Shown: one piece after another, positions 228 through 58,346 of the stretch
Layout of the letters: each line of letters starts with the position of its first letter
Position numbering within the stretch: the stretch's first letter is position 1
NCBI GenBank assembly: GCA_947175645.1
Contig: CAMWNP010000002.1
Coordinates: 96,835 to 160,834 of the forward strand
Direction of reading: 5' to 3'
Source: an uncultured Porphyromonadaceae bacterium
GTDB taxonomy: Bacteria; Bacteroidota; Bacteroidia; Bacteroidales; Muribaculaceae
DNA: 64,000 nucleotides
Translations under genes and position numbers: made by a program
The notes under the pieces: model-generated
Seen by the model: the letters and a program-made list of their open reading frames with translations, nothing else
What the model was told of the DNA's origin: nothing
Database searches by the model: none

Positions 228-239
228 GTTGGTAATAGT

Positions 240-707: not shown

Positions 708-709
708 GC

Positions 710-1195: not shown

Positions 1196-1499
1196 AATGC
1201 TTATAGCGTTTGTATCGCATTACTTTGCCCTCCACCTGTACCGTGCCATCCGCGCCCAATACTCGGATTTGGGCGTTTACTGGCACGGCAGGGGCGTTGG
1301 CAGGAAAGAAAATGTTGGAACTCTTGTTGATGGCACGCGCTGCAACCGTTGAAACCTCCTCGCCTCCATCGCTCGGCTCCTCGCGGCACATGGTTAGTGT
1401 TCTCCACTCGGAGGTACCACCCACCAAATCGCCTACGTCATTGCGCTCGGCCTCGGTGGTTACAAGCATTTGGAGTGTATCGGTATATCGGCTGGCCAT
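1176..1499 (-). CDS. Head closure or head-tail adaptor-like protein (107 aa)
   Basis: Size and position between the connector and the gp10-like gene. It overlaps the next gene by 20 nt. Confidence 0.45.
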   Translation of the reverse strand: MASRYTDTLQMLVTTEAERNDVGDLVGGTSEWRTLTMCREEPSDGGEEVSTVAARAINKSSNIFFPANAPAVPVNAQIRVLGADGTVQVEGKVMRYKRYKHYGKIWV

Positions 1500-1502
1500 G
1501 GC

Positions 1503-1850
1503 TTAAAATCTGTTTGAGGCGTGCGTTAGCGTTGTTACCGTTTCGGGCAGGAACTCCTCTACAGGCACCCCAGCCTCGCGGCACAGGAACGCAATGCGCT
1601 CCTTGAGCTTGTCATTGTAGCTCTGCGACCACTCGGCCTCTTTCTCACTGGAGAGTGAGAGGTATTTAACCAGTACCAGCACTGCTGCCAGCGCAATAAC
1701 GCGGTCGTTGTCGGGGGTGTAGTCCTCCTTTGCGGCCAGTGTAGCACCAGCACGCTTGCAAGCGGAGAGCAGAGCCTTTTCAAGCTCCAGCTCATTATCG
1801 CCGCTGCAATAGGGTAATACCTCGCTGGCTATTGCCTGTAGATTGTTCAT
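1503..1850 (-). CDS. Head-tail connector or adaptor protein (115 aa)
   Basis: First gene after the major capsid gene. Helical and acidic. Assigned by synteny. Confidence 0.45.
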   Translation of the reverse strand: MNNLQAIASEVLPYCSGDNELELEKALLSACKRAGATLAAKEDYTPDNDRVIALAAVLVLVKYLSLSSEKEAEWSQSYNDKLKERIAFLCREAGVPVEEFLPETVTTLTHASNRF

Positions 1851-1863
1851 GCTCTATTCGGGT

Positions 1864-3036
1864 TTAGGCGTTTTCCTCTGCGTTGCTCTTGGCATTAGCT
1901 GCCTCAAGGTTACGCACGCGGTAATTGACAATGCCCTCAATCTCGGTAATGGCAGGGAGCGCACGCCAGCTTGCCTGTGTGTACTCGCCTGCCTGCTGGC
2001 CTGTGCTTTCGCCAACCTGCCACTTGGCCACGCGAATGCCATGGTCGGCATCCATGTAGGTTACATCGGGTTCGGGGATAATGCTGTTATCCTCAAATGC
2101 AGGCTGCACCTCGCCGATTATGCCAGCAGGCTTAAAGCACAGCACATCATCGTTGTAGGGGTTGATGAGCGTTTCCTTACGTTTGCCATCCTCGGCCACA
2201 GAGTTGCGCTTGTTTACGATGGTAAATGCAGGCAGCTCAAAGGCAGCAAGCATATTGGTAAGCTCCACAGGGGTTACAGGCTGCCCCGACTTGTCGCTGC
2301 CCTTGATAGCACGGCGCACGGAGGGCAGGTTGATAAGCCAGTAGTACACGGAGGGGGAGATAAGAGTTTCTCCAAACGAAATGCCTTTGTTAGCAAAGGT
2401 GTAACGAATGTCGGCAAGCTCCTCAAAGGGGTTAATCTTGCTCTCGTTGCCTTTCTCCCACGCCGTAGTTGCCACAAGTTTGTTGGCATCGGGCATATCG
2501 TAGTCCACCTTGTAGCGGCGGCCATCGGGGTTATTGAGCTGGGGCTTGAACTCGGCCACACCGCCATTGGAGAGAGCTTGCAGGATAATGTGGTCGGCAG
2601 TATCCTTACAGCCCAAATATGCTTCACGCACATCCTTAATAAGCAGCTTTTTGACCTGTGCCATTTTCTGCTGGTCGGTGTAGCGTGGGCTTTCCAGTAC
2701 CTCCAGCAACTTGCGGAGGTTGTCGGCAGACATGGGGAACTTATGACCCATGCGCGGGATTTCGCCCTCAAAGGTGGTAAAACCATCAGTGGGGCGTGTA
2801 GGAGTGGCCGCATTGTTGCCGATAACGCTTGCCATAAAGCGCACTCTGTACTTTGACTGGAGTGTCTTACAGGTAAGCCCCATTTGAGGCAGGTTAAAGT
2901 CAAACCAGCGGTCAACGTAAAGCTGCTCAAAGAGAGCCTTCTGCTGCTGGCTGGCCGTGTCAAACATGATTTTGAGGGTGGCCAGCAGGCTCACAGGAAT
3001 AGTGGGTAAATTTACTTTGTTAAAAATTGACTCCAT
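1864..3036 (-). CDS. Major capsid protein (390 aa)
   Basis: Size and position after scaffold-like and decoration-like genes and before the neck genes. It is the only gene with a strong SD-like AAAGGAGGTA sequence 6 nt upstream of the ATG. Confidence 0.7.
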   Translation of the reverse strand: MESIFNKVNLPTIPVSLLATLKIMFDTASQQQKALFEQLYVDRWFDFNLPQMGLTCKTLQSKYRVRFMASVIGNNAATPTRPTDGFTTFEGEIPRMGHKFPMSADNLRKLLEVLESPRYTDQQKMAQVKKLLIKDVREAYLGCKDTADHIILQALSNGGVAEFKPQLNNPDGRRYKVDYDMPDANKLVATTAWEKGNESKINPFEELADIRYTFANKGISFGETLISPSVYYWLINLPSVRRAIKGSDKSGQPVTPVELTNMLAAFELPAFTIVNKRNSVAEDGKRKETLINPYNDDVLCFKPAGIIGEVQPAFEDNSIIPEPDVTYMDADHGIRVAKWQVGESTGQQAGEYTQASWRALPAITEIEGIVNYRVRNLEAANAKSNAEENA

Positions 3037-3055
3037 GTGTTACCTCCTTTCGGTT

Positions 3056-3691
3056 TTAGAGCGACTGGGTATAGGCTACCTTGGTACCCTTGAGCAGGTT
3101 GCCCTCAAGGTACTTGGCAGGCACAGGGGGCACGCGGCGAGCGTAAATCTCGCCACAACCGCTGTCGCGTGTAACATTGATTTGGGTATCGGCCAGCTCC
3201 TCCTTGACCTCGGCACTCTCGTAGGTGTCAATGGTAATGCTGTTGGGTTCTGCCACCAGCTTTACGTTGGTGCCATCAGCCACAACCTCAAAGAGTGCGG
3301 AGCCTACTGCAAGACCAGTAATGGCCTTGGAAAGCGTAATCTCCATGCCAGCCTCGGTGTTGGCCACCGCTGTGATGCTGGGGGAGTTTGCGAGAGTGGC
3401 AGAGAGGTCGCTTTGCACCGTATCGCCCACCATAAACAGGGGCTTGCTGAACTCATCTGCCTCCAGCGTTACCTTTTTGGCATCGGTACCAATGGCCACT
3501 ACTCGCGCACTCTTGATGAGCTTGCCGTAACGTGTGGCCTCGTTTACACAGGCCAGCGTGCCAAAGGGAACCAAAGCACCAACAGGCAGGTTGGTTTGAG
3601 CAGGGTCAAGCGTAAAGCCTCCTGTAACCATTACAGGGGGCTGGGTGCTGCACGGACGGGTGCCACCATAGCTTCTTTTCTTGGGTTTCAT
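3056..3691 (-). CDS. Capsid accessory or decoration-like protein (211 aa)
   Basis: It sits between the scaffold-like gene and the capsid gene, like lambda D before E. No motif recognised. Confidence 0.35.
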   Translation of the reverse strand: MKPKKRSYGGTRPCSTQPPVMVTGGFTLDPAQTNLPVGALVPFGTLACVNEATRYGKLIKSARVVAIGTDAKKVTLEADEFSKPLFMVGDTVQSDLSATLANSPSITAVANTEAGMEITLSKAITGLAVGSALFEVVADGTNVKLVAEPNSITIDTYESAEVKEELADTQINVTRDSGCGEIYARRVPPVPAKYLEGNLLKGTKVAYTQSL

Positions 3692-3705
3692 TGCTCTGTG
3701 ATTAA

Positions 3706-4302
3706 TTAGTTTGTTTTTACCTCACACTCGGCAAGCAGCTCCTTGGCCATGTCTGCCTCTGCCTGTTTCTGCGTTTCCGCAGCCACATCTTTGCTGGCAG
3801 GCTTTAAGCCTCGGTCTACAAGGCTCTGCTTGTACCTGCCCAAATAATCTGCCACATCGGCATCTTCGGGAATGGTTACAAACTCCATGTCGGCCTCTGT
3901 AAGACCCAGCTTTTTGGTCTCGGTGGCAATGAGGTTGTCGCGGTTGCTCTTTGCGAGCTGTGCCTGCAACTGGGAAATAGTTGTGGCCTGCTCATCAAAT
4001 TTGGTTTGGAACTTGGCGGTTACTGCCTCCACAATAGCCTCCACGTTGGCCTCAAGCGGTTTCTCGGTGGGCGGTGTTGCAGGGGGAGTGTTAGGCTTTT
4101 TGCCCTGCGCCCATCGGGTAGCCTCGGCCTGCATGGCTTTAAGGACAGGCAGGTACTCATTTGCGCGTTGCTCAATAGCCTCATCGGTCGCATCTTCTCC
4201 CAGCCCATTGCTTGCTATGGTGGCAATTTGCTGGATAGAATCCTTGGAAAGCCCCATGTCCGTGCATTTGGCCTCCAATACCTGTAAAAGTTTTTTCTTC
4301 AT
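3706..4302 (-). CDS. Scaffolding-like protein (198 aa from the ATG at 4302; the track ORF starts at a TTG at 4332)
   Basis: Helical, charged, Ala/Glu/Lys-rich. It is the first gene of the capsid block. Confidence 0.5.
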   Translation of the reverse strand: MKKKLLQVLEAKCTDMGLSKDSIQQIATIASNGLGEDATDEAIEQRANEYLPVLKAMQAEATRWAQGKKPNTPPATPPTEKPLEANVEAIVEAVTAKFQTKFDEQATTISQLQAQLAKSNRDNLIATETKKLGLTEADMEFVTIPEDADVADYLGRYKQSLVDRGLKPASKDVAAETQKQAEADMAKELLAECEVKTN

Positions 4303-4533
4303 TGCTCTACTTGCTTTAAGTGTTCGCTGCAAAGGTAATCAGTAATTTAATATGCGTACAAATACTGAACGCCTAATTTTTGAAAGTAATTCAACCTCAA
4401 TTCACTGCGAATATTGTTAAAGACTGTTAAATATTGCGGATTTTTGGCTTGAAAGTTTGGTATCTTAATTCTTTCCACTAACTTCGCAGCGTACAAAATA
4501 TGAACGCTTTTAGAAAATAAAAAAATCAAATAT

Positions 4534-5052
4534 ATGTTACAGCACGAATTTGAGAGCCGCGTAGGCATTGAGGTAAGCGCAAAAGAGTATGCCGCCATTG
4601 AGCAGGTTTACATGAGCAGCGATGTAGAAAAGGATGAGTTTTGCAAGCTGTGGGCAAAAATGAACCGTGTGCGCATTGCCAATGCTAAAGCCCAGCAAAA
4701 AGCCGCCGCCCAGTTTAAGGCACTCCGCATTGAGGAACAGGTAATTGTAAAAATGCTGGAGTTAGCAGAGCAGCGAGCTAACAACACAGGCTGCACGCTC
4801 CCTGTTAGCGACACCAACATTGATGCAAACAAGGTACGCGCACGCTACGAAGAAGCAGACGGCTTTACGGTGTATTTGGTATTGCGTGATACAGGAGCCG
4901 CAATTACTCACACCTATACAGAGGCCATGAATGAGGCAAAGGCTTTTAGCTCAAGCAATCCTACGGTTTATGAGTTTTTTGGCAACCGCACACTTAACCA
5001 TGGCTACTACAAAGTTGCTGGCTACACCTCTAACCCGAAACAAATATTTTAA
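4534..5052 (+). CDS. Hypothetical protein (172 aa), first gene of the plus-strand accessory island
   Basis: ATG start. It is divergent from the scaffold gene. Confidence 0.6.
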   Translation: MLQHEFESRVGIEVSAKEYAAIEQVYMSSDVEKDEFCKLWAKMNRVRIANAKAQQKAAAQFKALRIEEQVIVKMLELAEQRANNTGCTLPVSDTNIDANKVRARYEEADGFTVYLVLRDTGAAITHTYTEAMNEAKAFSSSNPTVYEFFGNRTLNHGYYKVAGYTSNPKQIF

Positions 5053-5071
5053 CACATAAATACTTACAGCT

Positions 5072-5302
5072 ATGATGATGTGCAGTGTATATGACAAGAC
5101 CACCCAAAAGAGCGAAACCTTTTGCAGCGTGGCAGCCGCTAAAAAACGTATGAAACAACTCCTCAAAGAGGGGCATGAGGTAAGCGGCAGTAAGACTAAA
5201 GTTTACTCAAACGGCGATTGGGTACCGTGCGGAGAAATAACCCTTACAGGCTCCAATGCCGTATTTGTAGCCAATACCAAACAAACTAAAGCAGGATATT
5301 AA
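5072..5302 (+). CDS. Hypothetical protein (76 aa)
   Basis: ATG start, followed by a hairpin at 5310..5330. Confidence 0.5.
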   Translation: MMMCSVYDKTTQKSETFCSVAAAKKRMKQLLKEGHEVSGSKTKVYSNGDWVPCGEITLTGSNAVFVANTKQTKAGY

Positions 5303-5309
5303 CTAACAC

Positions 5310-5330
5310 GGGGCTGGGCTGGCCAGCCCC
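5310..5330 (+). terminator. Stem-loop GGGGCTGG-GCTGG-CCAGCCCC
   Basis: Perfect 8-bp GC-rich stem directly after the stop at 5302. No clear U-tract. Confidence 0.45.
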
Positions 5331-5345
5331 ATAACAAACAAAAAT

Positions 5346-5579
5346 ATGAACGCAGCACGCAGAAAAGAACTTAACAAGCTCATTGAGCAGCTTGAGGATA
5401 TTAAGAGCCAAATTGAAAACCTCCAGCAGGAGGAACAGGACTCATACGACAACCTCCCCGAAAGCCTACAGGACAGCGAGCGTGGCGAGCGTATGCAGGA
5501 GGCCGCAGATGAGCTGGAGAATGCAGCCAGCAGCGTAGATGAAGTAATTGACTACATTAACAACGCAATAGAGCAATAA
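5346..5579 (+). CDS. Hypothetical acidic coiled-coil protein (77 aa)
   Basis: ATG start. Heptad-like Glu/Leu/Gln-rich sequence. Confidence 0.55.
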   Translation: MNAARRKELNKLIEQLEDIKSQIENLQQEEQDSYDNLPESLQDSERGERMQEAADELENAASSVDEVIDYINNAIEQ

Positions 5580-5581
5580 CC

Positions 5582-5785
5582 ATGGCAAAGAGAGTTAAGG
5601 CAAAGGCTCGCGTAAAGGTTATAACCGAATTTGGCAAATGGTGCCTTATGGAGATACGCGGCCTCAAGGAGGGCACAGAGCTTGAGGGCAGTTACAACCC
5701 TCGCAACAAAGCATTTGATTTTAGCTGGAATGGGCAAGACGCTATGCTTTGGGTAGGGCAAAATGCAGAACTAATAACAGAATAA
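5582..5785 (+). CDS. Hypothetical protein (67 aa)
   Basis: ATG 3 nt after the previous stop. Confidence 0.5.
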   Translation: MAKRVKAKARVKVITEFGKWCLMEIRGLKEGTELEGSYNPRNKAFDFSWNGQDAMLWVGQNAELITE

Positions 5786-5789
5786 CAAT

Positions 5790-6221
5790 ATGGCACAGGA
5801 AAGAAATAACACAGCCCTTGTGGCTACCACGCTCACGGCAGAGCAACAGCAGTACCTCAACGACATGGCCGCTTATGGCAAGAGGTTGCAAGAGTTAGCC
5901 TACAACTCGGTAGGCAAATGGGTGGCGGCAGGCTATGCCGATGGCAGAAATAATGTTGCAGGTATGTATTGCTATTGCGGCATGGGCAAAGGTTACAAGG
6001 GTGCGCCCATTGTGCCTGCCAGCGGTAATGCTGTAGTGTTTGCCTCAAAGGAGGCTGCCCAGCGTAAAGCCAGCCAGCTCAAGTATCAAAACGGCAGAGG
6101 CGAGCGCATACGGCTCACGGTAATACCTGCAAACGATTACTTTTGGCTGCTCTTTGATGATTTATGCAATACCATGAGCGTAGCAGAGCGCATGATGGTA
6201 GAGAACAATAAAAGCAAGTAA
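5790..6221 (+). CDS. Hypothetical protein (143 aa)
   Basis: ATG start, tightly packed with neighbours, followed by a hairpin. Confidence 0.55.
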   Translation: MAQERNNTALVATTLTAEQQQYLNDMAAYGKRLQELAYNSVGKWVAAGYADGRNNVAGMYCYCGMGKGYKGAPIVPASGNAVVFASKEAAQRKASQLKYQNGRGERIRLTVIPANDYFWLLFDDLCNTMSVAERMMVENNKSK

Positions 6222-6228
6222 TAATACT

Positions 6229-6252
6229 GGGGCTGGAGTAGTAGCCAGCCCC
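6229..6252 (+). terminator. Stem-loop GGGGCTGG-AGTAGTAG-CCAGCCCC
   Basis: Same 8-bp stem sequence as 5310..5330. It follows the stop at 6221. Confidence 0.45.
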
Positions 6253-6267
6253 ACAACACAAATAACC

Positions 6268-6534
6268 ATGGCAAGAGATAGCAAAACAAAGCAGCTTAAC
6301 GCACAGCTCCAAATAGTACGCCTTGATGGCCTCAAGTTTAAGGCACCCCTCGGCACAGCCAGCACTCGCGGCTGGGGGCTTTACATTGAGGGCAAGGGCT
6401 ACCTCAAATTTAAGAGCGACACCGATTATGTGCCTTATGCTCCCTGTGGAGGCCGTAAAGCACTGGAGAGCATACTGGCCGCTGGTGGCCTCCTCAACTA
6501 CGACAGCATTGAGTTTATTAACCCTGTAAAGTAA
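6268..6534 (+). CDS. Hypothetical protein (88 aa)
   Basis: ATG start in the same-strand gene array. Confidence 0.5.
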   Translation: MARDSKTKQLNAQLQIVRLDGLKFKAPLGTASTRGWGLYIEGKGYLKFKSDTDYVPYAPCGGRKALESILAAGGLLNYDSIEFINPVK

Positions 6535-6553
6535 TATATAACATCATAACAAT

Positions 6554-7435
6554 ATGGAACAAATAGAACGCAGAGCCTCTGTAATGGCTCTTAAACAACT
6601 GGCCTACCGTGCCACTCAAGGCACAAGTTTTGACCCCGACAAGCGCGGCGAAATGCTCCTCAATGATTGCGAAAAGGAGTTGCGCAGCTACACCTCCCAG
6701 CTCCCAGCAGAGCTGCATGAGCATTTTGAAAAGCGGTATCTTGAGCTATATTCAAACTGGCTCTCTGCAAGTAGCCGCTGTATCTCCAGCTTTATCACTG
6801 GACCTGCACGCTTTCCTGTGCGCCGTGCTGAAAGGTTGAGCTGCTGGGAGCGTAGCGCACGCGAAAAGCTGGATAGCTGGGCAGAGCGGTTTGTTAAGCG
6901 TGCCAACAGGCAGGCACGCCTCACTGGCTGGGAGGAGATTGCACGGCTGGAGGATAAGCTGGAAAAGCTCAAGGCGTGGCAGGAGCTTATGAAAGCCGCC
7001 AATAAGATTATCCGTAGCAACAAGTTCGGAGAGGTTGAAAAGGTTGATGAGCTGGTTGCACTCGGCATGAGCGAAAAGCAGGCCATGCTACTGCTTGAGG
7101 AACCCAAATACAGCTTTGAGCGCAGAGGTTTCCAAACATACCAGCTCACTAACAACAACGCCAAAATCAAGGACACAGAGGCACGCATTAAACGCCTCAC
7201 AAATATTGCCAGCACTCCCGACCGCTCTATTGAGCTGGAGGGCGTAACGGTGGAGCTGTGCAATAGTGAGGAGCGCATAAGGCTGCACTTTGATGGCAAG
7301 CCCGAACCCGATATGATTGCCAAACTCAAGCGAGCTGCATTTAAGTGGTCACCGCGCAATATGGCATGGCAGCGACAGCTCACAAATAATGCCCTCTACG
7401 AAACAAAACGCCTGCTGGGTGTAGAGGAACTTTAA
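6554..7435 (+). CDS. Hypothetical protein (293 aa)
   Basis: Long ORF with coding-like composition. The C-terminal FDGKPEPDMIAKLKRAAFKWSPRNMAWQRQ resembles tails seen in mobile-element proteins of unknown function. Confidence 0.6.
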   Translation: MEQIERRASVMALKQLAYRATQGTSFDPDKRGEMLLNDCEKELRSYTSQLPAELHEHFEKRYLELYSNWLSASSRCISSFITGPARFPVRRAERLSCWERSAREKLDSWAERFVKRANRQARLTGWEEIARLEDKLEKLKAWQELMKAANKIIRSNKFGEVEKVDELVALGMSEKQAMLLLEEPKYSFERRGFQTYQLTNNNAKIKDTEARIKRLTNIASTPDRSIELEGVTVELCNSEERIRLHFDGKPEPDMIAKLKRAAFKWSPRNMAWQRQLTNNALYETKRLLGVEEL

Positions 7436-7487
7436 TAACCCTGCCAGCGGAGTGTGCAGGCTCTCCGCTGGCTCTAATACTTACAAC

Positions 7488-7763
7488 ATGATTAAAGCAT
7501 CAGAACAACAGATACAGGCGGCCATTGAGGCTATTAGCGCACGCTTACAGGAGCCGCAAATAAACCAGTACCGTAATGCTCCAGTAAAAGAGGGCTATAC
7601 GGAGGCTCTGCACATATTGAGGGAGCGCATAGAGAGTTATGGAGGGATAAACAAACATTGCCACTCGGTACAAAGTAGAGCCATTGCGGTTTTGGCCGTT
7701 GATTTCCTCCGTGGAGATTGCACACATGAGGTACTTTGCAAGGTGCCCATAAAAAAGCTATAG
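7488..7763 (+). CDS. Hypothetical protein (91 aa from the ATG; the track ORF starts at a GTG at 7452)
   Basis: ATG at 7488 (MIKASEQQ...). Confidence 0.45.
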   Translation: MIKASEQQIQAAIEAISARLQEPQINQYRNAPVKEGYTEALHILRERIESYGGINKHCHSVQSRAIAVLAVDFLRGDCTHEVLCKVPIKKL

Positions 7764-7765
7764 CC

Positions 7766-7999
7766 ATGGCAGAGGGAGGCAACACAGCAGTGGTGGTACT
7801 GCTCAAGGGTGCGCCCTATGAGGGCAGCCGCACATGGCTCTTTGGGAGCAAAAAGGCCATATATGACCACCTGCCCCAGCACTTGCTGGGCATTGGACTG
7901 GTAACATTGCAGAACCGCAACATTACCCGAAAGCCCTATGAGAATAACCTTTGTATAATTCAAAAACTGGAGGTGTTACGCGCCTCTCGCAAAAAGTAA
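7766..7999 (+). CDS. Hypothetical protein (77 aa from the ATG; the track ORF starts at a TTG at 7736)
   Basis: ATG at 7766, 3 nt after the previous stop. Confidence 0.45.
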   Translation: MAEGGNTAVVVLLKGAPYEGSRTWLFGSKKAIYDHLPQHLLGIGLVTLQNRNITRKPYENNLCIIQKLEVLRASRKK

Positions 8000-8005
8000 G
8001 TAACA

Positions 8006-8788
8006 ATGATAGGAGCAATAATCGGCGATATGGTGGGCAGCACTTATGAGTTTGCCCCCACAAAGAACTACAATTTTGAGCTGCTGCCAGCAGGTAGCAC
8101 ATACACAGATGATAGCATCATGTGCGTGGCCGTGGCCGATGCAGTAATGCACGGCCAACGCTTTGCCTCTGCCATGCGTGATTGGGGGCGTAGGTACCCC
8201 ACACCAAAAGGCAGCTATGGCGGCAATTTCGCGGCATGGCTCCGCACAAAGAACCCTGCACCATATTACAGCTTTGGCAACGGCTCTGCAATGAGAGTGG
8301 CCGCTGTCGGCTGGGCTGGAGAGAACCTACTTGACGTGCAGCTAACGGCATACAATAGTGCAGAGTGTACCCACAACCACCCCGAAGGTATCAAGGGAGC
8401 CGTGGCCGTAGCTACTGCTGTTTACTTGGCTCGGTGCGGCCATACAAAGGCCGACATAAAGCAACGCATTGAGCAGCAGTTTAGCTACGATTTGAGCTTT
8501 GACCTGCTGGAACTCAAGCGCACATACAGCTTTAATGAGAGCTGCATGGGCACCGTGCCAGTGGCAATAAAGTGCTACCTTGAGAGCAAGGATTTTGAGG
8601 ATGCAATAAGGCTGGCCGTGGCCATGGGAGGCGATGCGGACACTCTCGGTTGTATTACTGGAGCCATTGCTGAAGCTGGCTATGGCACCCACTCAATACC
8701 CACGCCACTCTTTGAGGCGGCCATGAATGAGTTACCAACCGACATGAGGGAGGTGGTAGTGGAATTTATAGAGCGGTACCAGCGTTAA
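8006..8788 (+). CDS. ADP-ribosylglycohydrolase family protein (260 aa)
   Basis: N-terminal GAIIGDMVGSTYEF and C-terminal GGDADTLGCITGAIAEAGYG match the two metal-binding signatures of the ARH/DraG family. Confidence 0.85.
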   Translation: MIGAIIGDMVGSTYEFAPTKNYNFELLPAGSTYTDDSIMCVAVADAVMHGQRFASAMRDWGRRYPTPKGSYGGNFAAWLRTKNPAPYYSFGNGSAMRVAAVGWAGENLLDVQLTAYNSAECTHNHPEGIKGAVAVATAVYLARCGHTKADIKQRIEQQFSYDLSFDLLELKRTYSFNESCMGTVPVAIKCYLESKDFEDAIRLAVAMGGDADTLGCITGAIAEAGYGTHSIPTPLFEAAMNELPTDMREVVVEFIERYQR

Positions 8789-8820
8789 GCGCACTGGTAA
8801 TTAGATTGTTTAGGTTGCTG

Positions 8821-8851
8821 GCCAAATGGGGATATAATTGCCTCATTTGGC
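8821..8851 (+). terminator. Hairpin GCCAAATGGGG-N9-CCTCATTTGGC after the ARH gene
   Basis: 10 of 11 bp complementary, followed by T-rich CTGCTTTGTTTGG. Confidence 0.45.
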
Positions 8852-8942
8852 CTGCTTTGTTTGGTATATTCAAGAAAACCGACTAACTTTGCACTCATAT
8901 TGAGCTACAGGGGTAGCTCTAAAGACATAACACATTAGCCAA

Positions 8943-9073
8943 CTGCTCGCAAAATCACCACAACCGTAAGCAATGGGCTAAAAAAATGTAACTCACTATG
9001 GGTGTAGTGTATCTACGCACAGCGTAGGACTATGCCATGTGAGTTACAGGGTTGTGGTGACCCTTGCGAGCAG
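8943..9073. other. 131-nt three-tier nested inverted repeat (structured RNA or DNA element, function unknown)
   Basis: Hand-paired stems: P1 is 8943-8952/9064-9073 plus 8955-8965/9050-9060. P2 is 8987-9001/9035-9048 with a 1-nt bulge. P3 is 9013-9018/9022-9027. Confidence 0.5.
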
Positions 9074-9164
9074 GTGGCATCAGTCCTACGCATTTTTGCC
9101 TACGCAGAGCTGCTGCCATGCTGGCGCAAAATTAGGCAATAACACCAAACAACCCACAAGGCTA

Positions 9165-9584
9165 ATGAAACAATTTTTGAAAGTAACAGCAATGGCAGCC
9201 TGCCTGTTCCTCGGAGCTTGTGCCAGAACTCCCCAGCAGCAAGCGGAGGCACTTATTGAGGAGTATATGCAGAGCCATCTAAAAGACCCTGCCAGCTATG
9301 AGTGCATACACATGGGCAATCTCGGCAATGTAACGCCTATGAGTACGGCATTGGAACTAATAGAAAAGGGGTGTAAGGAGCATGGCTATCCCAACGATAG
9401 TATTAACCCCATGCTGGCACGTTTTAGAGCCATGAGAGAGCAGGAGGGCAAAGACCCTTACGAACTCCTCGGTTACACTCTTACGCTCAAGTATCGCGCC
9501 AAAAACTCCTTTGGAGGCAATGAGATACAAGAGAATGAGTTTATTTTCAATAAGGAGCTGACAACGATAGAGGCCGTAAAATAG
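9165..9584 (+). CDS. Lipoprotein (139 aa)
   Basis: The ATG at 9165 gives MKQFLKVTAMAACLFLGAC, a signal peptide with an L-G-A-C lipobox. Confidence 0.7.
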   Translation: MKQFLKVTAMAACLFLGACARTPQQQAEALIEEYMQSHLKDPASYECIHMGNLGNVTPMSTALELIEKGCKEHGYPNDSINPMLARFRAMREQEGKDPYELLGYTLTLKYRAKNSFGGNEIQENEFIFNKELTTIEAVK

Positions 9585-9661
9585 GCTTTCTTCCAAAAGT
9601 TAGGCACAACTTATGCAGGTGCGTGCGCGTTTTATGATTAACTTTGCAGAAAATTTCGCGC

Positions 9662-10300
9662 ATGAGCCAGCAAGATACTAAATACCTGTACTACAAAGGC
9701 GAGCGCACCAACCCTTTTGAGGAGATTAACGACAAGCAGGGGGCGTGGTGCGAGCGTTACAACGATACGGCCTCAATGCTGTGGTGTTTTGAATACCACT
9801 GGGCAAACGGCTGGGCAAAATACTCCCAGCTTGAGGAGCGTAACCCCAGCTATTATTTTGAGCTGCACAAAGAGCCTCAAAAGGAGTTTGGCAGCATACT
9901 GGAGGCATTACAGGTATTTGCATTGCACAGCTATTCGGGAGCCTTGAAAAACGGCTCAAAACGCTGGGTGCAGTATGTGTATGAGAATGGCATGGCAGAG
10001 CGTTTCTACAAGCCGCTGCACAACATTGTGCCAGCAACGGAGGTACCCAGTTATCTACACTGGTACCATGGGGAGGCTCAAGACCCCTATACGTTAGACA
10101 CTCGCGGCACTCGGAGCTTTTGGTGGGATTTTGAAAAGAACTGGTACACCACTACAGAGGAGCCGACACAAAAAACATGGGAGGAGCATTTGCATAACTG
10201 GTTCGTGCGTTGTGTGGATAAGCAGTGGGCAGCAATACCCGAAAAAGAGCAGGAGCGGCTGCTGGCAGCCTACAAAGCTGGAGAGAGGTTACAAGATTAA
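9662..10300 (+). CDS. Hypothetical Trp-rich protein (212 aa from the ATG; the track ORF starts at a TTG at 9644)
   Basis: ATG at 9662. Its stop overlaps the convergent stop of the MuF gene at 10297..10300. Confidence 0.55.
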   Translation: MSQQDTKYLYYKGERTNPFEEINDKQGAWCERYNDTASMLWCFEYHWANGWAKYSQLEERNPSYYFELHKEPQKEFGSILEALQVFALHSYSGALKNGSKRWVQYVYENGMAERFYKPLHNIVPATEVPSYLHWYHGEAQDPYTLDTRGTRSFWWDFEKNWYTTTEEPTQKTWEEHLHNWFVRCVDKQWAAIPEKEQERLLAAYKAGERLQD

Positions 10301-13300
10301 ACTATCTCCTCCAACTCAATACACCAATCGCCAACTTTACCCAGCCCTCGCGTTTTACACTGGTACGGAGCTTTAAGCAATCTAAATTTACTGCCAGCTC
10401 TAAATGTAATCTCACTCTCGCCACCCCCAAAATAACCTACTTTGTGTATATCTACGCCAGTTTTGCCGTAGATTTTCATTATTACACGCTGCCCTTTGGA
10501 GGCATGAACTATGCCGTCAGCGAAATGGTCGGCGGTATGTATGCTTGTTGTAGAGCTGGTGGGTGCAACCATTTGCCATGTCTTATCCTTGCTGTGCCAT
10601 GCCTGCATAATACTCTCCCAAAAGGCATCTTTTGCAGGGTTGGCAATAGCATCGGGGTATATGTTTAGACCTCGGTATGTTACGCCGTTATAGCGTGGCA
10701 TACTCTCAATGGCCTTATTGATGGCAGCCTTGAAATTGGCAAGCAACTGCTCAACATCAGCCTTAACGGCAGCATCAGTAATGAGGCTAACCTTACTTGC
10801 TCCATACAGGTAATCGCATATAAAGTTGGAGCTTTGAGTAAAGTTTGTTATCAGCGACAGCTCGCGTGCGCTCACATTACCACCCATGGCCTTAATCTCC
10901 TTTGCAAGTTGCTCACAGGCCGCTTTTCTACCAAACCAGTTTTCACCGCCAATCTTTTTACTCCAAATACCCCATGGCTCACTGGGAGCTGTAGGATTTA
11001 CAGGAGTATGGCTAAAATACTCCTTAATGGCCTTTTGTACCTGTGCCTCGGTAAGCCCATCTACATTTGCCAGCGTTGGCTGGAGGCTCGCATAACGCTC
11101 TCCTAATTGCGCAGTAAAGTCTGCCAGCCGTTGCATGGCAGAAATAACATTATAGTCGCGCTCATTGCCACTGGCCGCTGTAAGAGCTTTTTCATACTCA
11201 AACACCAGCTTATCCCTCTGTGCCTTGTCAGCGGCGGTATAGAATTGCTCAATATCGTAACCACCACCGCCTTTCTTGCGGAGCCGCGCCAGCCTCTCCT
11301 TGGTAAGCCTATCTACCTCTTTTTGCACCTCGGCCAGCTTGGTTTTTATAGCAGCCTCATTTGGGTGTGCCGCGCCAGTAAGGTTTTGCAGCTCCATTAC
11401 AAGGTTCTTAACCTTTGCGCTCTTGGTCGTTTGAGCAAACACCACCACTGCATCTATATCGGGCTGTATGGCATTGAGGGCAATTTTGGCCTTGTACTGC
11501 TCCTCCAGCTTTTCAAAATACTCAATAAACTTGCCTGTGGTAGGGTATTTTGTGGGGTTGAGCTTGGCATAATATAGTTCCTTTTGAATAACCTTTTGCA
11601 GGAACAGCTCATCGGTGGAGTAAATGCTACTCTTGGCCATGTGTTTGCTCCAGTTGGCCATAAAGGTTTTTGCATCCACCTCTCCAAACTCATTAACCAA
11701 TCCCCACATTGTAGGTTGCTCGGCATACTCGGCCACTGCAATCTTTTTGGCTGCTGCCATTTCCTTTGCCAGCTTTTTAGTGGCGGCCTGTATCTCGGAG
11801 GCAGTGCCATTAGCCACCACGCTCTCCAGTGCTGCGGTATCAATGCCCAGCAGGTCATAATGTCCCTTGCTGGCAGCTCCCAGTACGTTGTTGGCCACCT
11901 TAACCGCTTTGTTGTATGCTGCCACCTCGGCCTTGGCTTGAGCCTTGGCCGCCACAACCTCCTTAACAAAGTTGCTGCCATCATCTGTTAGCTCCAAATG
12001 GTAGTGCGTTACCTGCGTGGCCTTTCCTCCTCGCACAAGGGTTTTAACCTCGGTGCTTACGACCTTGAATTTGGTATTGGGGAGGAGCATGGCAGTAGGC
12101 TCTCCATTTGCCATGGTTTGCAGGTATCGGCTGCCCTTTGGCAAATCAAGTATGCACACTGCGCCACTATCAGCCCCGACAAGGCCATTTTCAAGCGCAG
12201 CAGAGCAAAGTTTGCTGTAATTCGTGCCAACATACCTGCTGGCCGTAAAAGTGGCTGTATCGCCACTTATCGCAGCCTCCAGCGTTTGCTTATCGAGAGC
12301 CACCATGAATTTGCCATTAGTCTTGGTTGCAAACTTGGCCTGTGTTGCAATATGCTCCATCTCTGCAAGCTGTTCGGGAGTGCAGTATTGTGCCAGTAAG
12401 TTGTTGCCCTTGGCAGCCTCGGCCAGTAGGTTTGCAAGCTCGCTGGGGTCTGTGAGCTTTGCCAGTTCCTCAAACTGCACACCGTTTGGAGTTACGGCAG
12501 TAGATAGAGGAAAGCCACCAGCCTTGCCAGCCTCTACAAAGTTGCTGGCCTCGGCAAACTCCTTGGCTGTGGCAGTTTGCATTTTGGTAAACTCATTAAG
12601 GTCTATCTCGGCTTTACCCATGAGCTTGCCAAAATTGGCCAGCCCAGCCTCATTTTTGTACTCATCAACCCACCGAAAGCCTTTGGCAATATTGCCGCCT
12701 TTGTAGTTCTCACGGATAAAGTATGGGAGGCTTTGAGCTGCCTGTATGCGCTCGGAGTTCTCGGCTATCCAGTTTGTAAACTGGGGCGGCATATCTGTAA
12801 CCATGCCAGCAGGTGCAAAGCCCTCGGTGTCCTCGCCTCGGAGTATTTGCCCTGTCAGCTCCTCCAGTTCCTCATCACTGCAAAGGAGGGGTACAATGTA
12901 GCAATAGCAGTGAGGGTGCCAACCCTCAAACATAAACTCTTTGGGATAGGTGCCAGCTAAATCATCGCAAATGTCACGGCAGGGGTGGTTTTTGCTCATT
13001 TTGACCTCAAACCCACATACAAAATTGAGCTGTTGCCAGCGAGTAATATCCGCATGGCGGTAGGCCATATTTGTTTCTGTGCGAGTGAGGCGCATGGCGT
13101 TTTTGTAGCTGCTCCTGTAAACACCTGTGCCAGTATGGTAATCCTTGGGGTTTGCATCAACCCAGTAAAAGCTGTCGGTGTCCTTGTCGTAGCACCTACG
13201 TTTCCACTTGCGGCCATAAATGGGGTTGCCCTCTGCATCCTCGCCCTTTTTGTAGCGAAAGCGGCGAAATAAATCATCGGGGTTTTGCAGGTACTCCCTT

Positions 13301-13806
13301 ACCTGCCTGCTCAAGGTGTCGGCACTCATGCCTTGCCCCAGCCCCAAATCCAGCGCAGCCTCAAGGTCGGTGCGAGCTTGCCCCACATAACGCCACACGC
13401 GCTGTGAGAGGTCAAGCCCTGCATCCTGCCTTGAGAGGAATGCCTGCATGGCCTGTTTGTTGCGCTGGAAAAACCGCGCATAATGGTTATCCTCAATACT
13501 GGCCTTGCCAAACAACCCCTTAACCAGTTTGTCGGTGGTGTCATTGGCATAGTTCCATTCTCTCACAATGTTGCCACGGATAGAGCGGTACACCTCCGCA
13601 TAAAGCTGGCGCAGCTTTTTATCTACCTTGGGGGCTATATCGTAATCGGCAAAAGCAAATGGTTTGCCCTCCTCCAGCTCCAGCCCCTCACACATGGCCA
13701 CAATCTCGCCAATACGTTTTTGGAACGTATCGCGCACGGCAAGCGCATACCACTCTGTGCGCTTGCCCAGTTTGCTGTAAACCTCTTTCCAGTTAATGTT
13801 TGCCAT
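10297..13806 (-). CDS. MuF / SPP1 gp7-like head morphogenesis protein with a C-terminal ADP-ribosyltransferase-like domain (1,169 aa)
   Basis: MuF signature NHPCRDICDD...GWHPHCYCY around residues 273-303. The C-terminus has an R-S-E triad: TYRG (R at 10672..10674), SSTTS, and GGGESE (ESE at 10411..10419). The gene follows the portal gene. Confidence 0.75.
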   Translation of the reverse strand: MANINWKEVYSKLGKRTEWYALAVRDTFQKRIGEIVAMCEGLELEEGKPFAFADYDIAPKVDKKLRQLYAEVYRSIRGNIVREWNYANDTTDKLVKGLFGKASIEDNHYARFFQRNKQAMQAFLSRQDAGLDLSQRVWRYVGQARTDLEAALDLGLGQGMSADTLSRQVREYLQNPDDLFRRFRYKKGEDAEGNPIYGRKWKRRCYDKDTDSFYWVDANPKDYHTGTGVYRSSYKNAMRLTRTETNMAYRHADITRWQQLNFVCGFEVKMSKNHPCRDICDDLAGTYPKEFMFEGWHPHCYCYIVPLLCSDEELEELTGQILRGEDTEGFAPAGMVTDMPPQFTNWIAENSERIQAAQSLPYFIRENYKGGNIAKGFRWVDEYKNEAGLANFGKLMGKAEIDLNEFTKMQTATAKEFAEASNFVEAGKAGGFPLSTAVTPNGVQFEELAKLTDPSELANLLAEAAKGNNLLAQYCTPEQLAEMEHIATQAKFATKTNGKFMVALDKQTLEAAISGDTATFTASRYVGTNYSKLCSAALENGLVGADSGAVCILDLPKGSRYLQTMANGEPTAMLLPNTKFKVVSTEVKTLVRGGKATQVTHYHLELTDDGSNFVKEVVAAKAQAKAEVAAYNKAVKVANNVLGAASKGHYDLLGIDTAALESVVANGTASEIQAATKKLAKEMAAAKKIAVAEYAEQPTMWGLVNEFGEVDAKTFMANWSKHMAKSSIYSTDELFLQKVIQKELYYAKLNPTKYPTTGKFIEYFEKLEEQYKAKIALNAIQPDIDAVVVFAQTTKSAKVKNLVMELQNLTGAAHPNEAAIKTKLAEVQKEVDRLTKERLARLRKKGGGGYDIEQFYTAADKAQRDKLVFEYEKALTAASGNERDYNVISAMQRLADFTAQLGERYASLQPTLANVDGLTEAQVQKAIKEYFSHTPVNPTAPSEPWGIWSKKIGGENWFGRKAACEQLAKEIKAMGGNVSARELSLITNFTQSSNFICDYLYGASKVSLITDAAVKADVEQLLANFKAAINKAIESMPRYNGVTYRGLNIYPDAIANPAKDAFWESIMQAWHSKDKTWQMVAPTSSTTSIHTADHFADGIVHASKGQRVIMKIYGKTGVDIHKVGYFGGGESEITFRAGSKFRLLKAPYQCKTRGLGKVGDWCIELEEIV

Positions 13807-13858: not shown

Positions 13859-15280
13859 TTACTGGTAGTTAAAAACATTGTTTTTGGCTGTCTCCTCCTC
13901 TTTGGCTTCTTTCTCGGCCTGCTCATTAGAAATGCGCTCTTTTTCACGCTGTTTGTCGCGCACAAGGGGGTTAAGCTCTATAAATGTTTCATTACTCATG
14001 CCACCTGCATTTTTAGTCTTGACAGCATTGGAAATTGCTTCCTCAATATCCTCCCCAAACGGCTCTTGGTACTCATGTTGCACCAGTAACTGCTCAAGCT
14101 GGGCACGCATGGGAATATTGAGTACCTTGGAGAGTATGGCAATAATGAGGTTGGCAATGCGCATAAGATACTCATCGTGTGACTCTTTACGCATGGAGGC
14201 TTTAATGTCTGCCAACACCATCATTTGCTTGAGAGCCTTGGCTGATACGTTAGTAAGGCGGCTCATGCTCTCAAAATCAATATTGGGGGTAAAGGTTTCA
14301 CGAAATATGTGCCGTTCATTATCATCGCTCTCTTGCTTTTTAAGCTCGCTGGCGGTGTCGGGTGTGAGGTAGCGCAGCTCTCCCTTTTCGCCCAGCACAT
14401 AGAGCTTATTTTCGGTGTCCTTGTCGGGCAGAGAATTAACCACATCAACGGTGGCCACAAGAGCTGGGTCGGCCATGTAGTCGTTTACATCGGCTGTACG
14501 GCTCTTAACGTATTCCTGTCGCTCAATGAGGTGGTTGGCACCATCCCACTCTGTTTCCTGCTCAAGGAGTATTACAGGCTTTTTGCCACAGAAATTAACC
14601 TCTCGCTCCACCTGCCAGCCAAAATTTTTACGCTTGCAGTGGTATGTGTAGTTATCAGTGAAAACATCCACATAATAGGCTGTAGTATTGCCACGCTCAC
14701 GCATATAATACCCACGCGCAAAATACAGGAGGCGGTCTACATGGTCTTTTATGTAGTATAAATCATCGCCCAGCGATTTAGCCAGCACCTTTATAAGGCA
14801 GTCGGCTTTACCATCGCTATTTTGGTAGCAATGGAACAGCAGCGCACTCTTGGTCTCGGCACCAGCCAAACGCTTTGCCTGCCTAATGCGAGCGTTAAAA
14901 TGAGTGGTACGGATAAAGTCGGTAAATGCTTTGTACGCAGCATCTGTGTTTTGGCTACTCTGCACCCATTGCACAGGACGGCCATAAATAAACACAACGG
15001 CCATTTCGTTTATGTACTTGGCATAAGAGAGAGGAAGCCGCCAGCGTTTAACCCATCCCTTGAAATTGCCATCTTTATCATAAATAGGCTTATCCATGCG
15101 CTGCATTATGGGGTGCTGCTCCAAATTGTACTGCTTTAGAGCCTCAAGCTGCTTGGGGTTGTCGCAGGTCATAAGAGCAAGCGCATCGCCTATGTTGTGA
15201 GCCTCCAGCAGCTCCTCAAACGACTGCTGGTAGCCGACAGCCGTTTTTAATTTGCTTTGAACGTAATTAAAAAAACTCAT
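13859..15280 (-). CDS. Portal protein (473 aa)
   Basis: Size and position between the large terminase and MuF genes. Confidence 0.75.
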   Translation of the reverse strand: MSFFNYVQSKLKTAVGYQQSFEELLEAHNIGDALALMTCDNPKQLEALKQYNLEQHPIMQRMDKPIYDKDGNFKGWVKRWRLPLSYAKYINEMAVVFIYGRPVQWVQSSQNTDAAYKAFTDFIRTTHFNARIRQAKRLAGAETKSALLFHCYQNSDGKADCLIKVLAKSLGDDLYYIKDHVDRLLYFARGYYMRERGNTTAYYVDVFTDNYTYHCKRKNFGWQVEREVNFCGKKPVILLEQETEWDGANHLIERQEYVKSRTADVNDYMADPALVATVDVVNSLPDKDTENKLYVLGEKGELRYLTPDTASELKKQESDDNERHIFRETFTPNIDFESMSRLTNVSAKALKQMMVLADIKASMRKESHDEYLMRIANLIIAILSKVLNIPMRAQLEQLLVQHEYQEPFGEDIEEAISNAVKTKNAGGMSNETFIELNPLVRDKQREKERISNEQAEKEAKEEETAKNNVFNYQ

Positions 15281-15299: not shown

Positions 15300-16829
15300 C
15301 TACAATAAGCCTGCAAAGCTGCCTTTGGTTATGCCCTCGGGCAGCTCTCTCGGCGCAATAAGGAAATACTCAATGGCGTAGTAGAGCAAATCCACAAACT
15401 CATCATGTGTTTGTGTGGGGAACCCTGCAATCTCCTCCACAAAGTCCTCATTCCATTCGCCCTCTACCAGCACCACGCGGCCACACTCAACCTTTGGGCT
15501 ACAGGTACACAGGCGCACACCCTTGCTGTCTATTGGCGTGGGTGTCTTGGTAACATTGAGGTCAGTGCTAACCTTGAGCTGCTGCACCACACTTATGCCG
15601 TTGGCCTTGGGTTCTATGCGCAGTGTACTGGTGCGCTTGTTAAAGCCCCATGCCTTGCAGTATTCGGGCAGGAACGCAATGAGGTCGGGGAATGTTTTCC
15701 ACACCTTTTTGGCATGGAGTATGTAAAGCTGCTGGCCAATTTTGCAGGCGGCCAGTATGCCGCTGGGGTCATTATCGCCCTTGCGGTGTTTCTCATCAAA
15801 AGCAGTGTCAAGGAAGAAATGCACTGTGGCATTGCCACGCATGGCCTCAAACTGGGCACGGCTAATGTACTGGAACCACTTTTTCTGTATAATGTTACCC
15901 TCCTCGCTGGCAGGTCTCTGCTCATACTGGCCTGCATAACCTCGTGTGCCCAAATCAATGCGAGCCTCGGCCAATACCTCTGCATCAAGGCGCACAGGGT
16001 CAAGGAGGCCGTTAATGTATCGGTCGCGCAGCACCACTGGGGTTACGTTGGGGGAAAGCTCGGCAGGGAGGCAAATGTGCCTTATCTTGTCGGCTTTCTT
16101 TTTGAGCAGGTAGCCTGTTACATCCTCCTCATGGAGCCGCTGCATAATGGTTATGGTGGGGGTGTTCTTTTTGTTTACCTTTCGTGTGGAGAGCGTTTTG
16201 GTAAACTCCACTGCCTGCTGCCTCAATGGCTCACTCTCTGCCTGTTTAGGGTTTTGGGGGTCATCGTTTATTATGAGGTGGGCGTGTTTACCAGTAACAG
16301 CGGACCCTGTACTGGTTACATACCTATCTCCTCCAGCCGTGTTGCCATAAAAGCCCTTACCGCTCTTGTCCCTACGCATAACCACTTCGGGGAACAGCCG
16401 CCTGTATTTCTCGCTGGTAATAATATCCTTACTCTTGGAGGCGTGGTCAATGCTCACATCGCTGGAGTAGGAGCTGGAGATAATGCGCAGGCTTGCATCT
16501 TGAGTCCATAGCCATGCTGGGAACATAATGGTTACAATAGTGCTTTTGGTAGTTCCTGGCGGTATGTTGATAAGGAGGTCATAAGGTTTTGGCTGGCGGC
16601 CTACAATGTAGGTGGCCAGCTCTTGCAGCTCATCGCACAGGTACTTTATGTGCCAGTTAAATACTGGTTCTTCGGGTATAATAACAGCCCAAAAAGTTTC
16701 TACAAACCTGTAAAAACTTTTCCTGCACATGAGAGCCTGCACTTTATCCAGCAGCTCATCAGTAAGCTCTATGTTACTGGGCTTTTTTGTCACGTTTAGC
16801 AGCAATGGCGTAGAGGGTTGCCAGCTCAT
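15300..16829 (-). CDS. terL: Terminase large subunit (509 aa)
   Basis: Walker A-like PPGTTKST and Walker B-like HLIINDDP, with a C-terminal nuclease-like half. Its start overlaps the end of TerS. Confidence 0.85.
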   Translation of the reverse strand: MSWQPSTPLLLNVTKKPSNIELTDELLDKVQALMCRKSFYRFVETFWAVIIPEEPVFNWHIKYLCDELQELATYIVGRQPKPYDLLINIPPGTTKSTIVTIMFPAWLWTQDASLRIISSSYSSDVSIDHASKSKDIITSEKYRRLFPEVVMRRDKSGKGFYGNTAGGDRYVTSTGSAVTGKHAHLIINDDPQNPKQAESEPLRQQAVEFTKTLSTRKVNKKNTPTITIMQRLHEEDVTGYLLKKKADKIRHICLPAELSPNVTPVVLRDRYINGLLDPVRLDAEVLAEARIDLGTRGYAGQYEQRPASEEGNIIQKKWFQYISRAQFEAMRGNATVHFFLDTAFDEKHRKGDNDPSGILAACKIGQQLYILHAKKVWKTFPDLIAFLPEYCKAWGFNKRTSTLRIEPKANGISVVQQLKVSTDLNVTKTPTPIDSKGVRLCTCSPKVECGRVVLVEGEWNEDFVEEIAGFPTQTHDEFVDLLYYAIEYFLIAPRELPEGITKGSFAGLL

Positions 16830-38507: not shown

Positions 38508-38511
38508 TTTG

Positions 38512-58344: not shown

Positions 58345-58346
58345 GC

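Follow-up and report, generated by a model that had tools for sequence, protein, structure and literature searches.

The window analysed here is a stretch of 64,000 nucleotides (nt) of contig CAMWNP010000002.1, and at 8006..8788 (+) it encodes an ADP-ribosylhydrolase (ARH) of 260 amino acids (aa). We consider this ARH to be the cognate eraser and immunity enzyme of a polymorphic-toxin module carried by a temperate Bacteroidales phage, and put the probability of this reading at about 0.8. The toxin of the module is encoded by the convergent gene at 10297..13806 (-), in which a MuF head-morphogenesis domain is fused to a C-terminal ADP-ribosyltransferase (ART) domain. The toxin/immunity reading is supported because experiments on the homologous toxin Bxa and its hydrolase BAH, homology to a locus that we equate with that of Bxa (L006), and an ART-specific co-occurrence seen in both directions all point to it. 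An initial annotation of the window had proposed that the ARH protects the producer from its own MuF-borne ART, and these three lines of evidence favour that proposal.

MuF-fused toxins are widespread phage-borne polymorphic toxins whose role is poorly understood, and a connection between their ART/ARH/Bsi version and the ability of Bacteroides to colonise the gut has been drawn. The module in the window is a divergent example of the Bxa-type system, and its pairing of toxin and hydrolase was already known. The novelty that the initial annotation implied for an ART/ARH pair was overestimated, as the pairing was published in 2024, and the main hypothesis together with most of the tests proposed for it had already been dealt with on the homologous Bxa system (PMC11699363). 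What is new here is real, though incremental: a second ART subfamily that is distinct in sequence, a toxin architecture of 1169 aa, a fused double form of the inhibitor Bsi, and a cargo gene. The dual-immunity logic of product reversal combined with an active-site binder is thereby extended to a longer toxin and to a different lineage of Bacteroidales phages. The picture of 2024 is unchanged, and the locus offers a natural variant for testing the specificity of each immunity component.

The ARH and its partner toxin gene

The product of 8006..8788 (+), read from an ATG start, is a member of the ARH superfamily and shows every testable feature that defines it; Pfam, PHROG, alignments, and a structure model searched with Foldseek agree in this assignment. 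The two metal-site signatures of the ARH/DraG family that had been noticed earlier are present (GAIIGDMVGSTYEF, aa 3-16; GGDADTLGCITGAIAEAGYG, aa 208-227). The Pfam family PF03747 (ADP_ribosyl_GH) matched with E=8e-34 and 118.1 bits, where the gathering score is 26.2 bits, and the match covered profile positions 3-286 of 287; PHROG 6572, 'ADP-ribosylglycohydrolase', matched with E=7e-62. The catalytic glutamate is E15, and the metal-site residues are T34-D35-D36 and D210-A-D212-T213. All seven of these residues (E15, T34, D35, D36, D210, D212 and T213) were invariant among 35 ARHs of MuF-ART loci and again in 34 database homologs, so that a check for degeneracy of the catalytic residues found them intact. 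When aligned with hARH3, E15 pairs with E41 in the sequence 'GDCVGSFYE', and the GGDADT of the window ARH pairs with the metal motif GGDTDT.

An AlphaFold2 (AF2) model of the ARH, built from database homologs, is all-alpha with 15 helices and was predicted with confidence (mean predicted local distance difference test score, pLDDT, 96.5; predicted template-modelling score, pTM, 0.94). When this model was compared with the PDB by Foldseek, ARH3 (TM 0.80), MJ1187 (0.78) and DraG (0.77) were retrieved, each with a probability of 1.00. A family profile of the ARH searched against the PDB gave ARH3 (4e-25), DraG (4e-17), Tri1 (6e-11) and ARH1 (3e-10). Because the family match, the invariance of the catalytic residues and the confident model concur, we regard the ARH-fold hydrolase as intact and presumably active. 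Its nearest named relative, with 73% identity, is an ARH of Muribaculum intestinale, suggesting by this resemblance a Bacteroidales host, perhaps one of the Muribaculaceae and probably not Bacteroides.

As the initial annotation had described, the ARH gene lies on the opposite strand to the MuF gene and converges on it from about 1.5 kb away; 1,508 bp separate the end of the ARH gene (stop at 8788) from the stop codon of the MuF gene (10297). The partner gene at 10297..13806 (-, including the stop) encodes a predicted MuF-ART polymorphic toxin of 1169 aa, an assignment based on PHROGs, homologs (1150-1270 aa in length and 50-96% identical) and neighbouring genes. It adjoins, on the same strand, an SPP1-type portal gene located directly upstream (13859..15280, -) and a large terminase gene (15300..16829, -).

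The N-terminal part of the toxin (aa 1-370; 12697..13806, -) is a MuF domain of the head-morphogenesis or SPP1 gp7-like type, as judged from PHROGs and alignment. Its aa 4-373 fall within the head-morphogenesis and minor head protein PHROGs 7625, 1657, 115 and 4728, and phrog_16625, 'Bxa ADP-ribosyl transferase', matched the N-terminus with E=1e-157. HPCRD...HPHCYC motifs occur at aa 274-302, and many columns are invariant in an alignment of 18 MuF domain sequences. The Pfam MuF family PF04233 gave no match in the window MuF-ART; it is precomputed on a relative, P0220. Relatives of this domain were collected by a genomic scan with one genome per species, yielding 80 loci, to most of which the window domain is 39-55% identical; identity to one of the loci, L001, reaches 90%.

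The C-terminal part (aa 901-1169; 10300..11106, -) was assigned as an ART domain from a family profile, an AF2 model searched with Foldseek, and its catalytic triad. Pfam searches of the MuF-ART protein, both entire and as thirds, gave nothing meaningful even at E<=10, and a single-sequence search of the PDB with the C-terminus gave only a marginal match to ExoT (E=0.44); the ART assignment therefore required a family profile and a structure model. An iterated hidden Markov model (HMM) connects aa 901-1168 with about 95 MuF C-termini, many of which carry precomputed matches to PF01129 or PF03496. The window ART itself fails both of these curated models, and relatives that pass them include L009 (PF01129, 32.1 bits) and P0162, P0165 and P0191 (PF03496). 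A profile of 14 ART family sequences searched against the PDB found Vis (2e-13), HopU1 (5e-11) and Tre1 (3e-9), next to which came SpvB, ExoS/T and iota toxin. The AF2 model of the domain has a pLDDT of 89, and its top Foldseek matches are again Vis, HopU1 and Tre1, all of which are arginine-specific ARTs. The catalytic triad consists of R1045 (in T-Y-R-G), S1084-S-T and E1130-S-E1132, pairing with the YRG, STST and EAEV of Vis, and S1084, E1130 and E1132 are invariant across the ART family. The label 'MuF-ART' given earlier is thus upheld by PHROGs, by the ART family profile and by the AF2 fold, although Pfam is blind to it, and the C-terminus of the 1169-aa protein is, judged by profile and modelled structure, a genuine R-S-ExE ADP-ribosyltransferase.

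A subfamily of 818-aa proteins with PF01129-annotated ARTs has lost the Y-R-G arginine (F-S-G instead), with S-T-T and E-x-E invariant, which is unusual for ARTs of the R-S-E type; the window ART keeps R1045, unlike this subfamily, where a serine stands in its place. The middle region of the window toxin (aa 371-900; 11107..12696, -), of about 530 aa, is common to the long subclade only: strong phmmer matches were confined to long MuF-ARTs (1046-1270 aa), and no Pfam domain was found in it. Part of this region (aa ~470-720, 'PKGSRYLQ...PNTKFKVV') was considered as a degenerate second ART, as in VIP2 or iota toxin, and comparison with the ART family lent this no support (hhalign E=0.054, Prob 1%).

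Homology to the Bxa-BAH-Bsi system

Bxa was reportedly first described by Brown et al. in 2021. It is the 869-aa MuF-ART of a prophage of Bacteroides stercoris ATCC 43185 (Alexei et al., J Biol Chem 2024, PMC11699363), and it kills E. coli by promiscuous ADP-ribosylation of arginines (PMC11699363). The adjacent ARH, called BAH, strips the Arg-ADP-ribose installed by Bxa, in vitro as well as in the cell, and restores growth; the E15A mutant of BAH supports neither removal nor rescue (PMC11699363). A small neighbouring protein, Bsi, binds and blocks Bxa in a manner that needs K89 and E92, and the third neighbour, RS09440, has no effect (PMC11699363). The co-occurrence of these genes was stated qualitatively for Bxa-type loci, and the parallel with the Apk2/Aph1/Tis1 MuF toxins was pointed out (PMC11699363).

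Among the genomic loci, one from Bacteroides acidifaciens DSM 15896 (L006) allows the window to be related to this system. It encodes an 869-aa MuF-ART possessing 16 of 16 Bxa residues of Tables S1/S2 of that study, E818 and E820 included. The next gene is a 107-aa ORF (open reading frame) in which 9 of the 11 Bsi residues of these tables are found, always shifted by 3 positions, and the third encodes a 257-aa ARH in which residue 15 is a glutamate. By this correspondence of residue numbers with Tables S1/S2 (PMC11699363), L006 is identified as a Bxa locus and its ARH as an ortholog of BAH. Full-length alignment of the window ARH with that of L006 gives 48% identity (E=6e-85); between the two MuF N-terminal domains the identity is 52%. 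By sequence and context, the window ARH is a homolog of BAH.

The two modules share their overall design. In each, a MuF N-terminus is fused to a C-terminal R-S-ExE ART within the head-morphogenesis block and beside the portal gene; the convergent downstream genes encode first a Bsi-like protein and then the ARH; the ARH is about 257-260 aa long with the catalytic E15 and a complete metal site; and the same conserved backbone ORF of about 85 aa lies past the ARH. They differ in that the window toxin is 1169 aa long rather than 869 aa, with the middle region of about 530 aa found only in the 'long' subclade, and in that the window ART is tied to PF01129-annotated relatives and the Bxa-type ART to PF03496. 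The Bsi-like protein of the window, a tandem duplicate fused into one chain, has 212 aa where its counterpart has 107 aa, and it is without the K89/E92 region. In addition, a lipoprotein gene is placed between the Bsi-like gene and the ARH gene in the window, where the gap is 1.5 kb as opposed to about 0.36 kb.

More distant systems offer further parallels, of which Tre1/Tri1 and DraG had been named in the initial annotation. Both are apt as analogies, and the ARH is an equivalog of neither: it scored 43.5 bits against the Tri1 equivalog NF041672 (NCBIfam cut-off 490; aa 89-234 only) and 66.9 bits against the DraG equivalog TIGR02662 (NCBIfam cut-off 337). Tre1-Tri1 of Serratia proteamaculans (PDB 6DRE/6DRH) likewise combines an antibacterial toxin that ADP-ribosylates arginine with an immunity enzyme of the ARH fold, and both halves of 6DRE were matched, Tre1 by the ART profile (E=3e-9) and Tri1 by the ARH profile (E=6e-11). 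Unlike the window toxin, Tre1 is delivered by a type VI secretion system and is not a phage head protein; moreover, Tri1 unites binding and hydrolysis in one protein, two tasks that are apparently split between the Bsi-like protein and the ARH in the window. DraT-DraG is a writer/eraser pair acting on arginine, and the window ARH shares the fold and metal site of DraG; that pair is, however, regulatory (its target is dinitrogenase reductase) and not a toxin-immunity pair, and the window has no nitrogenase context. Apk2-Aph1-Tis1 (PMC10083569) resembles the window module in having a MuF-fused toxin, a product-reversing enzyme and a small active-site blocker encoded side by side in the head module, and differs in its chemistry, the synthesis and hydrolysis of (p)ppApp, and in the unrelated folds of toxin and immunity proteins. 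Another ART/ARH pair is seen in the solved Lmo0066-Lmo0067 complex of Listeria (PDB 8ZA7), which is without a MuF fusion and was compared by profile matches alone: one chain matches the ART profile (E=4e-6) and the other the ARH profile (E=2e-18).

Toxin-specific co-occurrence and competing explanations

Co-occurrence of ARH and MuF-ART genes across related phages had been suggested as a check, and it bears the pairing out. For the MuF genes of the 80 genomic loci, C-terminal extensions were grouped into clusters, representatives of which were scanned with Pfam. The ART cluster (PF03496/PF01129) comprised 45 of the 80 loci, or 46 with the window; the other MuF genes ended in CdiA_C, glutamine deamidase, LPD3, metallopeptidase-like or unknown domains, or had no extension. 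After removal of identical proteins and of loci with too little downstream sequence, 68 non-redundant loci were counted. An ARH gene was found downstream of the MuF gene in 33 of 40 ART-type loci and in 1 of 28 others (Fisher p=3.7e-11). The sole exception, L063, is a MuF-ART split by a frameshift, making the latter count effectively 0 of 27. The arrangement is constant as well, in that all 37 ARH-bearing genomic loci have the ARH gene on the downstream side of the MuF gene, pointing towards it across a gap of 226-2218 bp. These counts turn the published qualitative co-occurrence into numbers.

The converse test started from 80 viral contigs holding the closest ARHs. An ART was present in 62 of them, as a single ORF with MuF in 57, as a truncated ART in 3 and as a split gene in 2. 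Among the remaining contigs, 7 are too short to judge, and only 5 are without a MuF gene although there is space for one. In some viral loci (L101, L102, L105-L107, L110-L112 and L116), a MuF gene on the same strand lies directly upstream of the ARH gene; its match to the ART is only weak (E~1e-8), and a Bsi-like gene is missing. A further variant was seen in L103 (3466-6953), where the ORF after the ARH and Bsi-like genes is convergent with them, codes for 802 aa and matches neither the MuF nor the ART queries; this may represent a toxin on another N-terminal carrier or an orphan immunity pair.

Taken with the Bxa data, these observations suggest how the module might work. The MuF N-terminus would presumably seat the 1169-aa toxin in the capsid by the portal, as the position of the gene and the MuF literature lead one to expect of a packaged protein. 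By homology with Vis, HopU1, Tre1 and Bxa, the ART domain is predicted to move ADP-ribose from NAD+ to arginines of proteins, and a promiscuous ART of this kind would kill the cell that produces it. Such self-killing could be averted by two proteins whose genes close the convergent + strand block. The tandem Bsi-like protein would bind the ART and occlude its active site, and the ARH would hydrolyse residual arginine-ADP-ribose by means of its binuclear metal site (T34-D35-D36, D210, D212 and T213) together with E15. That this ARH acts on the products of this ART, and that the Bsi-like protein binds it, are expectations drawn from homology and from analogy with BAH and Bsi.

Several observations weigh against assigning the ARH to self-protection from this ART. 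The loci in which co-occurrence was counted come from related phages, and the counts are not phylogenetically independent; the relevant contrast is that the association tracks toxin type within a shared backbone. Seven ART loci (L010, L011, L053, L044, L050, L051 and L054) are without an ARH gene. They still have Bsi-like genes, two in tandem in the case of L010, L011 and L053, which implies that the ARH is dispensable in some lineages. Loci that have lost the ARH thus tend toward duplicated Bsi-like genes, and this tendency suggests that binder duplication can replace enzymatic immunity. In both sequence and fold, the window ARH also resembles ARH3 and DraG more closely than it does ARH1, which is arginine-specific, and the top 50 Foldseek matches consist of ARH3, MJ1187, DraG and TTHA with ARH1 absent. 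The published description of BAH as 'ARH1-like' is a statement of expected substrate and not of lineage, and BAH does cleave Arg-ADPr. Furthermore, the window ART and the C-terminal domain of Bxa (BxaCT) fall into separate sequence subfamilies: BLASTP could align it with the BxaCT-type ART of L006 only around the ExE strand, so we infer its substrate and linkage chemistry. Finally, the K89/E92 region of Bsi does not align with the Bsi-like protein of the window, as one would expect of a binder co-evolving with another ART subfamily.

Part of this divergence bears on an explanation that overlaps the self-protection reading, according to which the prophage ARH mainly guards the lysogen from heterologous MuF-ARTs injected by other phages, self-protection being left to the Bsi-like protein. 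An ARH targets the reaction product and not the toxin. ARHs remain 39-54% identical across loci, the ART domains having diverged until they are unalignable outside the ExE strand, and Bsi-like proteins diverge along with the toxin. Non-cognate immunity was raised as a possibility for loci of the Bxa type (PMC11699363), and Jamet et al. proposed that MuF toxins are injected with DNA (PMC5576092). If foreign toxins were the main target, however, orphan ARHs would be expected, and almost every ARH has an ART linked to it in cis; as the principal role of the ARH we hold this quite unlikely. A related conjecture, for which we see a small chance, is that the eraser is generic and the binder specific, so that the ARH may give lysogens broad cross-immunity to heterologous MuF-ARTs delivered by virions. 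It is suggested because ARHs stay about 40-55% identical while ARTs diverge past alignment and Bsi-like proteins diverge with them, here to the point of being duplicated and fused. If true, the ARH would be a determinant of superinfection or of kin discrimination in gut Bacteroidales, beyond self-protection.

The second alternative in the initial annotation was that the ARH counteracts host defence, undoing ADP-ribosylation by an ART-based anti-phage system independently of any phage ART. ARH-family enzymes can in principle erase defensive ADP-ribosylation, and four viral contigs (L122, L127, L133 and L153) have a close ARH with no detectable MuF-ART within 8 kb. By contrast, the homolog BAH alone suffices against Bxa (PMC11699363), the ARH follows the toxin type of the neighbouring MuF gene (33 of 40 loci versus 1 of 28, or 0 of 27 with L063 taken as a split ART), and it always occupies the immunity slot beside a Bsi-like gene. 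PADLOC run on the genes of the island gave no match to a defence system, for the ARH or any other gene. This alternative, which gains nothing from the analysis, is very improbable, as the ARH tracks the phage ART rather than the host context. Another possibility would be an unrelated moron or metabolic enzyme that acts on free ADP-ribose derivatives or O-acetyl-ADP-ribose and stands next to the ART by coincidence; the ARH is closest to ARH3, which also hydrolyses O-acetyl-ADP-ribose, and the neighbouring lipoprotein slot gene looks like cargo. Coincidence cannot account for a linkage that is specific to ARTs in about 100 loci, and together with the experimental data on BAH (PMC11699363) this linkage makes such an enzyme extremely improbable.

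The immunity slot and the phage genome

Within the window, the toxin-immunity slot (8006..10300) is composed of the ARH gene, a lipoprotein-like ORF and the double Bsi-like gene. The last of these, at 9662..10300 (+), encodes a tandem-duplicated Bsi-like protein of 212 aa from its ATG, or 218 aa if a TTG at 9644 is used, which we regard as a putative stoichiometric ART inhibitor on the basis of HMM, hhalign and BLASTP results. Its stop overlaps the convergent MuF-ART stop by 4 nt. An HMM iterated from the L006 Bsi ortholog matched the ORF with E=5.6e-14, the C-terminal half (aa 133-193) with an independent E-value (iE) of 1.7e-11 and the N-terminal half (aa 13-71) with an iE of 0.14. Comparison of the N-terminal with the C-terminal half of the Bsi-like family by hhalign gave Prob 93% and E=3.4e-7, and in BLASTP each half matched the Bsi N-terminal motif (YYKGE-x-NPF ... 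FW-x-x-E-x-x-W). Since the halves match the Bsi motif and each other, the protein, at about twice the usual length, is a fused tandem duplicate. Double forms of about 204-229 aa also lie beside the long MuF-ARTs of L001, L081-L083, L087, L088, L090 and L161, and in the genomic loci the HMM found Bsi-like ORFs directly downstream of nearly every ART-type MuF gene.

The lipoprotein-like ORF of 141 aa (9159..9584, +) has a signal sequence, MKQFLKVTAMAACLFLGAC..., with a lipobox-like LGAC, and belongs to phrog_21933 (unknown function). Its homologs are found in few related loci (L002, L003, L085, L086 and L091), and in L161, a relative with a 90%-identical MuF-ART, two different ORFs of 155 and 157 aa occupy its place. 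Because it is sporadic among relatives and replaced in L161, we regard it as variable cargo that is probably outside the immunity mechanism.

On the other side of the ARH, 7 nt upstream of it, lies a conserved ORF of 87 aa (7736..7999, +; phrog_10608). Its family adjoins the ARH in 83 of 113 matching rows and also occurs in loci with non-ART toxins, with short MuF genes or without an ARH. It was considered as a third immunity gene and rejected, since nearly all related loci have a member of the family, whatever their toxin type and whether or not they carry an ARH. The ORF is a backbone gene without specificity for ARTs, and the toxin-immunity slot has its outer edge there. If BACSTE_RS09440 belongs to this family, its failure to neutralise Bxa would be explained. 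The slot between the toxin gene and this backbone ORF is an exchange site for immunity genes and cargo. Scans for sigma-70 promoters and intrinsic terminators over 4000-11000 returned matches at chance level, these scans being ill-suited to Bacteroidales.

The window is a phage genome of 57,637 bp wrapped on itself, with 1..6363 equal base for base to 57638..64000; features in the former interval therefore duplicate those in the latter. The head module is on the - strand except where the + strand block at 4534..10300 breaks into it, with the MuF gene on one side and the scaffold and major-capsid genes on the other. An integrase gene (37047..38336, -; phrog_1) adjoins a tRNA-Arg(CCG) gene (38511..38583, -), an arrangement that fits a temperate phage, possibly one integrating at the tRNA gene. 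In L161, the MuF-ART gene and the same gene order are located at 186-202 kb of a 304-kb bacterial contig, that is, in an integrated prophage, and the integration of so close a relative indicates that the phage lineage is temperate. Related loci are overwhelmingly from Bacteroidales, and a megablast search with 6000-14000 against the INPHARED phage collection gave no match.

Two further features were noted elsewhere in the window. A reverse-transcriptase ORF (41110..42576, -; phrog_1423, E=1e-93) is accompanied by a direct repeat of 106 nt (42774-42879 versus 43070-43175, 89% identical), with the second copy at the 3' (C-terminal) end of a tail-protein gene (43036..44466, -). The repeats are as expected for a template/variable pair, and the region 41110-44466 is likely a diversity-generating retroelement. 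Upstream of the terminase region, 17823-19259 encodes a fusion of a ParB-like nuclease N-terminus to a DNA methyltransferase (phrog_620/940 and phrog_498).

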